From Octopus vulgaris (taxonomy: Eukaryota), in the NCBI GenBank assembly GCA_951406725.2, contig OX597838.1, forward strand, positions 17,484,001 to 17,548,000: DNA of 64,000 nt, written 5' to 3'. The translations under genes and the position numbers were made by a program. The notes under the pieces are model-generated. The model did not search any database. It was not told where the DNA came from and saw nothing but the letters and a program-made list of their open reading frames with translations. Positions 12,488-13,895 of this stretch are shown here, in pieces; the first letter of the stretch is position 1; each line of letters opens with the position of its first letter.

Positions 12488-12760
12488 TGTATGTATGTAT
12501 GTATGTATGTATGGTCGTTTCTGTTTTTGATTATTTAAATTCTTCCTTTGAAGAAATTTCTGGTTTCTAATAAAGATACAAATCCCCATCGTTGGAATGT
12601 AAGTAATGTAAACGATGTCACATTTTAAACCTGACGAAAGGCTTGCAGAGTTTTAATGTTCCACTTATAGATGTATGTATGTATGTCTGTCTGTATGTGT
12701 GTATGTATGTGTGTGTGTGTTTTGCATTAGAAAACTGAAAATCAGAATAATAATTTTGTA

Positions 12761-13009
12761 TAGTTCTATATTTAAGAGATGAGGAATTATTTACATTATT
12801 TACATTCGACGGATATTTGTCCTCATCTTGTTTGTTGTTAACACAACGTTTCGGCTGAGATACCCTCCAGCCTTCTTCAGGTGTCTTGGGGAAATTTAAC
12901 CACTACGCCATACACCTATGGGCATATCGCGTAGTGGTTAAGAGCGCGGGCTACTAACCCCAAGATTCCGAGTTCGATTCCGAGCAGTGACCTGAACAAT
13001 AACAATACC

Positions 13010-13058
<49 letters not shown>

Positions 13059-13193
13059 TCGAAAAATACCTTAGGAATGAGAACCCAGGTTCAGAAATTT
13101 CCCCAAGACACCTGAAGAAGGCTGGAGGGTATATCAGCCGAAACGTTGTGTTAACAACAAACAAGATGAGGACAAATATCCGTAAATAATGTA
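12761..13193 (+). mobile_element. tRNA-headed, hammerhead-bearing element with inverted partial copy (candidate PLE-mobilised SINE)
   Basis: tRNA-like head 12919-12993, (AAT)n, HHR 13108-13151; inverted copy 12761-12916 with HHR 12841-12884; candidate TSD aataattttgta at 12749-12760 and 13194-13205. Confidence 0.8.
13108..13151 (+). ncRNA. Minimal type-I hammerhead ribozyme motif
   Basis: acac-CTGAAGA-a-ggctg(gagggtatat)cagcc-GAAAC-GTT-gtgt: stem I acac/gtgt, 5-bp stem II, palindromic AACGTT helix III. Confidence 0.78.
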
Positions 13194-13429
13194 AATAATT
13201 TTGTAGTTTCAGTTCCAATTTAATTACATTCTATTGATAACTCGTGTGACTTTTAGTGCTATTTGTTTCAGTCATTGAACTGTGGCCATACTGGGGCACC
13301 GCCGTGAAGGGGTTTTGTCGAATAAATCAACCACAGGACTTACCTTTTCAAGCCTAGTACTTATTCTGTCGGTTTCATTGGTCAAACCTCTGAGTTTGAT
13401 AAATATTGATCGATAATATAATTACCAGA

Positions 13430-13895
13430 CTGGCAGGATCGTTAGCATGCCGGAAAAAATGCTTAGCGGCATTTCGTCCGTCTTTACATTTTTAGTTCAA
13501 ATCTCGCCCATGTCGATTTTGCCCTTCATCCTTTCGAGGTCGATAAAATAAGTACCTATTTCTTTACTACCCACAATGGGCTAAACACAAAGAGGACAAA
13601 CAAGGACAGACAAACGGATTAAGTCGATTATATCGACCCCAGTGCGTAACTGGTACTAATTTAATCGACCTCGAAAGGATGAAAGGCAAAGTCGACCTTG
13701 GTGGAATTTGAACTCAGAACGTAACGTCAGGCGAAATACGGCTACGCATTTCGCCCGGCGTGCTAACGATTCTGCCAACTCGCCGATAAAATAAGTACCA
13801 GTTGAGTTCTGGGGGTGGGGTGTGGGGGTCAGTGCATCGACTTAACTCCTCCCCCGAAATTGCTGGCCTTGTGTCAAAATTTGAAACCAGTATAA
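13430..13895. mobile_element. Nested SINE family B: minus copy 13553-13785 inside an older plus copy
   Basis: cgataaaataagtacc duplicated on both sides of the inner copy (~13541-13556 and ~13784-13799). Confidence 0.8.

Follow-up and report, generated by a model that had tools for sequence, protein, structure and literature searches.

Anatomy of the insertion and its family

We analyzed a 64,000-nt stretch of the Octopus vulgaris genome (contig OX597838.1, positions 17,484,001 to 17,548,000 of the forward strand; hereafter the window, whose own numbering is used), which carries at 12749–13205 a short insertion joining a tRNA-like head to a hammerhead ribozyme. An interpretation made from the letters of the window only (the sequence-only reading) had taken this unit for a short interspersed nuclear element (SINE) that parasitises the enzymes of Penelope-like elements (PLEs); the features on which it was built, namely the head, a linker, two hammerheads, an inverted and internally deleted arm and a 12-bp repeat, were all found where it had placed them. 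The copies of the family described below indicate that the unit of head, (AAT)n linker and hammerhead is almost certainly the pseudo-long terminal repeat (pLTR) of an autonomous, now decayed PLE.

The forward arm (+ strand) begins with the tRNA-like head (12920–12992), the 5′ end of the pLTR and its putative transcription start, which contains an A box (12927–12937; TCG in this copy, TGG in the inverted arm), a B box (12972–12981) and the loop CTACTAA. An (AAC/AAT)n linker of variable length (12995–13057), representing the 5′ untranslated region, leads to the start of a Penelope open reading frame (ORF; 13077–13200, with the ATG at 13077–13079). In the window copy, this ORF start bears a frameshift after five codons, encloses a minimal type I hammerhead (13108–13151; core CUGAAGA/GAAA, with the palindrome AACGUU replacing helix III) and closes with 9-nt in-frame repeats at the proximal start site of reverse transcription. 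The GUU of the hammerhead lies at 13145–13147, and its cut is predicted after 13147.

Upstream, on the opposite strand, lies the inverted arm (12761–12918), in which an internal deletion at a short microhomology joins the first ~22 nt of the head to the N-terminal part of the ORF. The latter contains a second minimal type I hammerhead (12841–12884, − strand), identified by motif scan and folding; a pattern scan of the whole window returned these two hammerhead motifs only. The inverted arm ends in a 3′ extension of ~35 nt (12761–12790, − strand) of the type described for PLEs (PMC11167929, PMC8557442), which, by analogy with the anole element PAc, would mark a distal start of reverse transcription. 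Other copies place the true 3′ end of the element ~35 nt beyond the end of the forward arm, and in the window this end is present on the inverted arm only. Both arms meet head to head at 12910–12927, in a decayed form of the GCCCAYGGGC fold-back of the family, whose palindrome axis (12918/12919) is reached by the inverted arm.

The insertion lies between two copies of a 12-bp sequence (12749–12760 and 13194–13205, + strand). Microhomology was present at both ends: the last 2 nt of the left copy overlap the element end, and the first ~7 nt of the right copy also match the end of the element repeat. Although part of it overlaps element sequence in this way, the target-site duplication suspected earlier is credible, because flanks of at least 8 bp were shared in 23 of 43 two-ended loci of the family compared to 2% of mismatched pairs; flanks of at least 10 bp were shared in 17 of the 43, vs. 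0.1% of mismatched pairs. With the extension on the inverted arm and the repeat end on the forward arm, the window insertion fits a PLE inverted pair.

A DNA search of the host genome (2.8 Gb, 227 contigs) returned 1,243 candidates, and an exact 33-nt head motif gave 1,605 matches, a minimum of the head copies, compared to none for the reversed control. Extrapolating from this motif count at the observed divergence of ~6.5% per copy, we estimate ~14,000 head-bearing arms. The unit is a repeat family and not the product of chance: head and hammerhead tail travel together in many copies, with inverted 5′ pieces, a point that the sequence-only reading had left to a genome-wide search. No relatives were found among viral contigs. 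In L142, L157 and L159, the (AAT)n linker 3′ of the head is often broken by an unrelated LINE-like (long interspersed nuclear element) sequence, presumably of the R4/Dong type, which parts head from tail. One extremely short insertion (L078:6626–6656) consists of 31 nt of the 3′ extension and nothing else.

The insertion signature was determined in 90 of the first 100 listed exact motif matches on contig C1 (two second arms of loci already included and the last eight were left out), with 3′ ends typed by alignment. An inverted piece was located upstream in 62 of these 90 loci, and the extension was carried by exactly one arm in 38 of 41 typed pairs, three pairs having it on neither arm and none on both, which supports the Penelope-style inverted architecture proposed for the window. 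The two arms of one insertion stop at two different fixed 3′ sites within the target duplication. In published descriptions, an inverted partner and a 30–40-bp tail at one end constitute the PLE signature (PMC8557442), and in the case of PAc both target strands are cut and extended, the tail being made by two internal starts (PMC11167929).

The parent element

A search with the tail only led to a locus (L087) where a frame with reverse transcriptase (RT) and GIY-YIG endonuclease closes just before a head. When the end of this ORF was employed as the query, 2,929 candidates were obtained, and in 27 of the 30 loci fetched (counted by eye; the exceptions were L115, L120 and L133) the head stood within ~35 nt 3′ of the GIY-YIG stop. 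Walking upstream yielded near-full copies, e.g., L247, in which the hammerhead tail continues directly into the ORF; with a BLAST query lying wholly downstream of the unit, the unit was detected directly 5′ of the ORF in 27 of 30 loci. Read from 5′ to 3′, the element consists of the head, the (AAT)n linker, an ATG embedded with the hammerhead, the RT and GIY-YIG domains, the stop codon, a spacer of ~33 nt and a second head. A partial tandem with pLTRs on both sides of the ORF is shown by the 27 of 30 loci at each end, among them L460 and L462, which are head-to-tail tandems, and by L247.

ORF and head were also present together in sequence data of three other organisms (RNA runs of D, contigs of B and E), and a contig of organism B bridges the stop to the start of the head. 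Judged on these sequences, we see no plausible alternative to a PLE origin short of the ORF–head junctions being assembly artefacts. Chance nesting of an unrelated tRNA SINE beside a Penelope fragment at this one locus, for which nothing beyond the modular look of the unit speaks, is vanishingly improbable, given that the arrangement recurs in 27 of 30 loci at the ORF end and throughout the anchored sample, and that ORF and head are shared by three further organisms. The autonomous PLE sharing the 3′ part of the unit that the sequence-only reading had envisaged was, therefore, found, the whole unit including the head being its pLTR. Its further claim that Penelope RT/GIY-YIG machinery made the insertion is supported as well.

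The tail is coding: the frame from the ATG at 13077 aligns with the N-terminus of a full-length homolog, P0003 (tblastn E value of 1e-5 for the window and 9e-35 for L252); the relatives P0001–P0007 show 53–68% identity. An assignment of the tail to the ORF's C-terminal end was wrong, as the near-full copies place it at the N-terminus. Among the best 150 of 5,870 candidates, the longest open frame comprised 569 amino acids (aa), with RT motifs and a GIY-YIG end, and it had 2,989 homologs with PF00078/PF26215 among the 7,999 scored. A single ORF with RT and C-terminal GIY-YIG was found in L087, L247 and L319, all copies examined being decayed. Pfam reported RVT_1 alone for the ORF, just under the cut-off, and the GIY-YIG label comes from motifs and homologs; a cysteine-cluster pattern of a Zn-finger linker was not observed in the family. 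A tentative placement in Penelope/Poseidon is based on features; in a 17-row RT tree, which held no named Poseidon reference, the family lay far from the Neptune-type ORF of the host.

Two further observations concern the junctions of the element. In L447, L451, L458, L459, L461 and others, a pLTR piece is preceded by ~230–275 nt of ORF beyond the extension; these partial tandems are template jumps, possibly aided by 5-nt microhomology and partly an effect of query length. Further, the stop-to-head spacer (L109–L138) looks like the beginning of the head in inverted and decayed form, and its sequence suggests that the tandem junction of the master may have been made by the same fold-back that is seen at new insertions.

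A young PLE family with a 781-aa ORF, encountered through a Pfam GIY-YIG search and presumably of the Neptune type, was rejected as the partner as it shares no tail with the unit. This family (L061:1–5172, C16:20835000–20840172; relatives L062–L067, L077 and L078) has many intact 781-aa ORFs and a 385-bp pLTR and is flanked by (TA)n; upstream lies a further, separate frame (260–479 aa) for which no convincing Pfam match was obtained; a hammerhead pattern scan of the family gave no motif.

Copy ends, terminators and the transcript of the element

Sorted by their 5′ ends, the 90 arms comprise 8 that continue into the ORF, 66 that stop at the start of the head and 16 that stop within it. Of the 66 at the head start, 50 fall between −8 and +5; the remaining 16 are fold-back junctions located at the same palindrome, where the aligner had extended too far. 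Thus counted, 66 of the 74 arms that reach the head start end there, vs. 17.7 expected from the rate inside the head. Of 40 head-start loci in which a partner arm adjoins, 28 have a partner that stops at some other site; the peak is therefore due to the end of the template rather than to palindrome pairing. The head is likely the true 5′ end of the RNA. Such a head-started RNA can carry the ORF, because two ORF-start copies (L449 and L464) begin at the head and hold the start of the ORF.

The same ends could have arisen in a PLE whose tRNA-like 5′ end does not serve as an RNA polymerase III (pol III) promoter for the ORF, an explanation that we regard as rather unlikely overall. According to one form of it, a pol II transcript starts at this site, for which there is a precedent in the internal, TATA-less, LINE-like promoter described in the pLTR of Drosophila virilis Penelope (PMC2377424). 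Alternatively, the ends might be due to RT stalling at a hairpin, and a spacer–head hairpin is indeed predicted; the copy ends, however, straddle the hairpin loop (−8 to +5) rather than its 3′ base, and in 16 of 17 cases (14 by pattern, two by eye) the sequence 5′ of the fold-back junctions is an inverted head and not the spacer. tRNA-like processing is a third form, with which the many copy ends upstream of tRNA position +1 disagree, since they argue against an RNase P cut, as does the decayed cloverleaf.

This explanation would also ascribe to chance, or to a general A-rich strand bias, a second property of the element. Over 2.6–2.7 kb of the ~2.9-kb unit, the sense strand has no TTTT in majority columns, while 4.6–4.8 runs are expected; the whole-unit probability of this absence (P of ~0.01 when computed from composition, 0.003 when 79 related ORFs serve as the reference) counts against chance. 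TTT was also low (13–14 vs. 21–22 expected), and 59.6 kb of decayed ORF copies contained 13 TTTT runs, none of which was common to more than 4 of 33. The 79 related ORFs, from metagenomes, had a median of 4.0 TTTT per kb, 1.45 times the expected number. In favor of chance, 4 of these 79 ORFs are devoid of TTTT in the matched stretch. That the four are further pol III elements was not supported; each has TTTT elsewhere in its element, and none of the relatives matched the A/B-box pattern on the sense strand; ARAGORN at an 80% threshold gave noise only on the four. Other PLE families of the host carry TTTT at about the expected rate, and no A/B-box match was detected in 13 of their loci that were scanned.

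Three of the sequences inspected in these comparisons deserve description. A related ORF segment (L366:3001–4653) has 22 TTT and zero TTTT (7.4 expected), with many elsewhere in the locus. Most of L403–L432, together with L440–L444, belong to an older PLE family, which served as a control; it has its own minimal hammerhead 3′ of the ORF, and its untranslated part contains T-runs. L433–L439 and L445 represent a young GIY-YIG retroelement family, often in inverted pairs and with open frames to 957 aa or more, at whose end no hammerhead pattern was found.

As for the head itself, neither Rfam at its gathering score nor ARAGORN (no tRNA call) reported anything in the window, which is expected, because the hammerhead is minimal and the cloverleaf decayed. 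Alignment of the head with tRNAs of the host genome gave z values of 7–9 over shuffles; Arg-TCT was the top match among the 10 isoacceptor types sampled and is at most a candidate parent; tRNA-Thr as the parent was not supported, Arg-TCT scoring higher in this sample. The head did not fold better than shuffles (z of +0.6).

The hammerhead is present by sequence and by fold, in keeping with minimal hammerheads in the pLTR being a trait of endonuclease-bearing (EN+) PLEs (PMC4209133). Its monomer fold was modest (z of −1.9). By sequence, the core is intact in 57 of 98 copies, and the only frequent core variant is at the free position N7. Cofolding of two copies did not return the dimeric hammerhead fold, for which free-energy folding is a poor test. 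The ribozyme likely cuts only as a dimer or with the help of protein, and uncut RNA was likely the template of reverse transcription. In PAc, as published, the ORF begins in the hammerhead and the latter is dispensable for insertion (PMC11167929). Only 1–2 of 22 inverted-arm 5′ ends within the tail lay near the cut site, and we observed no sign of self-cleaved RNA as the main template. In ORF-start loci, junctions cluster near the cut site; they were not counted as traces of cleavage, as the palindromes and microhomology present there can explain them.

The accepted role of pol III is the synthesis of short non-coding RNA, and pol II or, in the case of R2, the rDNA promoter is, to our knowledge, assumed to be required by autonomous retroelements. 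The model that we favor, and hold on these sequences to be somewhat more probable than not, is a PLE with a tRNA-type head that is read by pol III and has two internal starts of reverse transcription. Within it, pol III transcription of the whole coding element would seem at least evenly balanced, and perhaps slightly favored. Transcription by TFIIIC and pol III would begin a few bases 5′ of the head and proceed through the 2.9-kb unit, which has no terminator. If the RT-endonuclease acts like that of PAc in the anole, it would nick both target strands, and cDNA synthesis would start at two internal sites, each used by one strand and lying ~120 and ~155 nt into the ORF. A start in the first pLTR of the RNA would produce a ~280-nt cDNA that runs off the RNA 5′ end, that is, a SINE look-alike, and a start in the second pLTR would produce the rarer ORF-bearing copies; the two cDNAs would then join head to head. 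Penelope enzymes begin reverse transcription at internal sites, and we propose that such an element, if pol III-driven, for this reason used its own message to shed SINE look-alikes in numbers of the order of ten thousand. That an autonomous coding retrotransposon captured a tRNA-type promoter, purged its terminators, was read by pol III from end to end and shed SINE look-alikes is, taken as one proposition, a matter on which we stand evenly divided.

Several results weigh against pol III transcription of the coding element or limit the data behind it. The TTTT signal comes from one lineage; the step from TTT to TTTT alone, over 1.7 kb, is not significant (P of 0.14–0.28), and the natural copy L319 contains three TTTT runs, as a synonymous shuffle expects. 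The hairpin of spacer and head in read-through RNA, as predicted, could stall RT. Translation of an uncapped pol III RNA is a difficulty for the model, and a hammerhead cut would remove the ATG. Copy ends were counted in a sample anchored on an exact 33-nt motif from one contig, in which three apparent segmental-duplicate pairs were kept. Further, no intact ORF was found in the best 150 of the 5,870 candidates, and the family looks extinct.

RNA reads were drawn from two raw runs of the related organism D and aligned to the natural copy L245, the strandedness of the library being uncertain. Both strands had equal depth, which increased toward the 3′ end in the same way as for DNA, and neither at the head nor at the cut site did starts or ends accumulate in the two runs, from which short unpolyadenylated RNA may be lost. 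The transcript starts at the head (~12919) that the sequence-only reading had anticipated were not seen in these runs. This RNA signal reflects passive transcription or an uninformative library and does not support present pol III activity, a result that likewise counts in favor of a PLE whose head is no pol III promoter.

Relation to SINEs and other known elements

The tails of solo (n = 49) and ORF-linked (n = 39) copies were compared. All common variants and the same two linked subfamilies occurred in both classes, divergence was 6.7% in solo and 6.2% in ORF-linked tails, and no solo-specific variant was detected at 20 variable columns (lowest uncorrected p of 0.035). Both arms of the window carry the hammerhead core of the minor subfamily. 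The copies descend from about two masters, and the simplest reading is that shared masters gave rise to the solo and the ORF-linked copies over the same period.

These data bear on an adjusted form of the sequence-only reading, according to which solo units became pol III-transcribed masters in their own right, were mobilised in trans and so constitute a true SINE dependent on Penelope; by capturing such a SINE, the ORF element may have gained its head. In its favor, solo copies outnumber ORF-bearing ones by 66 to 8, each of them possesses the internal promoter motif and both start sites, the spacer of the master resembles a decayed head fold-back, the mark of new insertions, and non-autonomous PLE derivatives are known (PMC8557442; bioRxiv 2026.07.22.740005). 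Against this, no variant is specific to solo copies, and both classes share the same two subfamilies and the same divergence; moreover, PAc is described as requiring the first 172 nt of its ORF, a stretch that extends past the start sites (PMC11167929), and this part may be missing from solo copies. Weighing both sides, we consider a true SINE improbable. The separate SINE parasitising Penelope machinery was, accordingly, not borne out: the whole unit, head included, is a pLTR, its tail is the N-terminus of the ORF and solo copies have no variant of their own. In size and head (less than 700 bp, a tRNA-derived head, A and B boxes), the unit resembles a SINE as defined in the SINEBase description; the same definition makes SINEs non-autonomous users of the RT of a partner LINE, whereas this unit belongs to an autonomous PLE (PMC3531059). 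[quoted passage not shown]

The sequence-only reading had suspected a novel class, but Schistosoma already provides a SINE that combines a hammerhead with a pol III promoter (PMC6765202). Sm-alpha and Sj-alpha are SINE-like units with a pol III promoter and a hammerhead, as is the unit here; they are, however, tandem and non-coding, their self-cleavage has been shown, and the published descriptions do not present them as the terminal repeat of an ORF element (PMC6765202, PMC8490949), while the octopus family forms dispersed inverted pairs in which the hammerhead is coding sequence. The loci fetched were single units, inverted pairs or partial tandems and showed no tandem array with a hammerhead in each unit, the arrangement of non-LTR retrozymes. 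Retrozymes have been described as PLE derivatives (PMC7229834, PMC7761336, bioRxiv 10.64898/2026.07.22.740005). Animal non-LTR retrozymes (PMC7229834; Li, Clavereau, Pollet 2026, bioRxiv 10.64898/2026.07.22.740005) and non-autonomous Chlamys elements, e.g., MRC1 (PMC8557442), are similarly short pieces related to PLE pLTRs and spread by PLE enzymes. Retrozymes differ in forming tandem arrays that make circular RNA, and a tRNA head is not mentioned in the accounts available (PMC7229834, bioRxiv 10.64898/2026.07.22.740005); in our family, there is neither such an array at the loci fetched nor a separate lineage.

The closest likenesses are PAc of Anolis (Frangieh 2024, PMC11167929) and D. virilis Penelope (Schostak 2008, PMC2377424). 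As described there, these share the order pLTR–ORF–pLTR, an RT followed by a C-terminal GIY-YIG, an ORF start overlapping the hammerhead, an inverted 5′-truncated partner and a promoter in the pLTR. PAc also has two 3′ ends ~35 nt apart, at 111–118 into its ORF (PMC11167929), compared to ~117–138 and 157–163 here, in a copy with three 9-nt repeats. The D. virilis element differs by its LINE-like TATA-less promoter and an intron (PMC2377424). A pLTR that begins with a tRNA-like A/B-box head, sharp copy ends and a unit free of TTTT distinguish the octopus element from both.

A pol III-type promoter derived from a small RNA and located in a terminal repeat is likewise known from the TRIMp3 elements Cassandra, Helenus and Ajax (Kojima 2024, PMC10886601). 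Those are described as non-autonomous LTR elements of up to ~1.3 kb, whereas this is a protein-coding PLE, whose repeats are pLTRs flanking its ORF rather than two true LTRs; the autonomous partners of TRIMp3 elements, according to the same source, must use pol II (PMC10886601). R2, in turn, is protein-coding, carries a ribozyme and reportedly does not use a pol II promoter of its own; it is reported to be co-transcribed from the rDNA promoter and its ribozyme is HDV-like (hepatitis delta virus), whereas a pol III promoter of its own is proposed for the element here (PMC6765202, PMC2377424). The description of short non-autonomous Penelope elements in butterflies contains, in the part available, no mention of a head (PMC6685494), and a 2026 octopus repeat annotation mentions no hammerheads in its text or supplement (PMC13282606). 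We found no autonomous PLE with a tRNA-type head in the literature, as judged mostly by titles and the beginnings of abstracts, and Repbase, Dfam or SINEBase may list the family under a different label. What is new here are the ends of 66 of 74 copies at the head start and the sense strand free of TTTT; SINEs with hammerheads and non-autonomous PLE derivatives were already known.

Elsewhere in the window, a different short repeat occurs just 3′ of the insertion as two inverted 126-nt copies with 81% complementarity (13431–13556 and 13652–13777), and a 218-aa frame at 2206–2862 (− strand) resembles a fragment of a mariner-type transposase.

With regard to the PLE mechanism, the 38 of 41 typed pairs provide a genomic count, complementing the in vitro data on PAc, for the use of two different start sites by the two target strands. 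If the favored model is true, it would raise the questions of how ribosomes translate an RNA without a cap and what role a hammerhead plays in the start of an ORF. It would also establish a third route to SINEs, one that needs no separate parasite, and some of the tRNA SINEs annotated in invertebrates would then be solo pLTRs.
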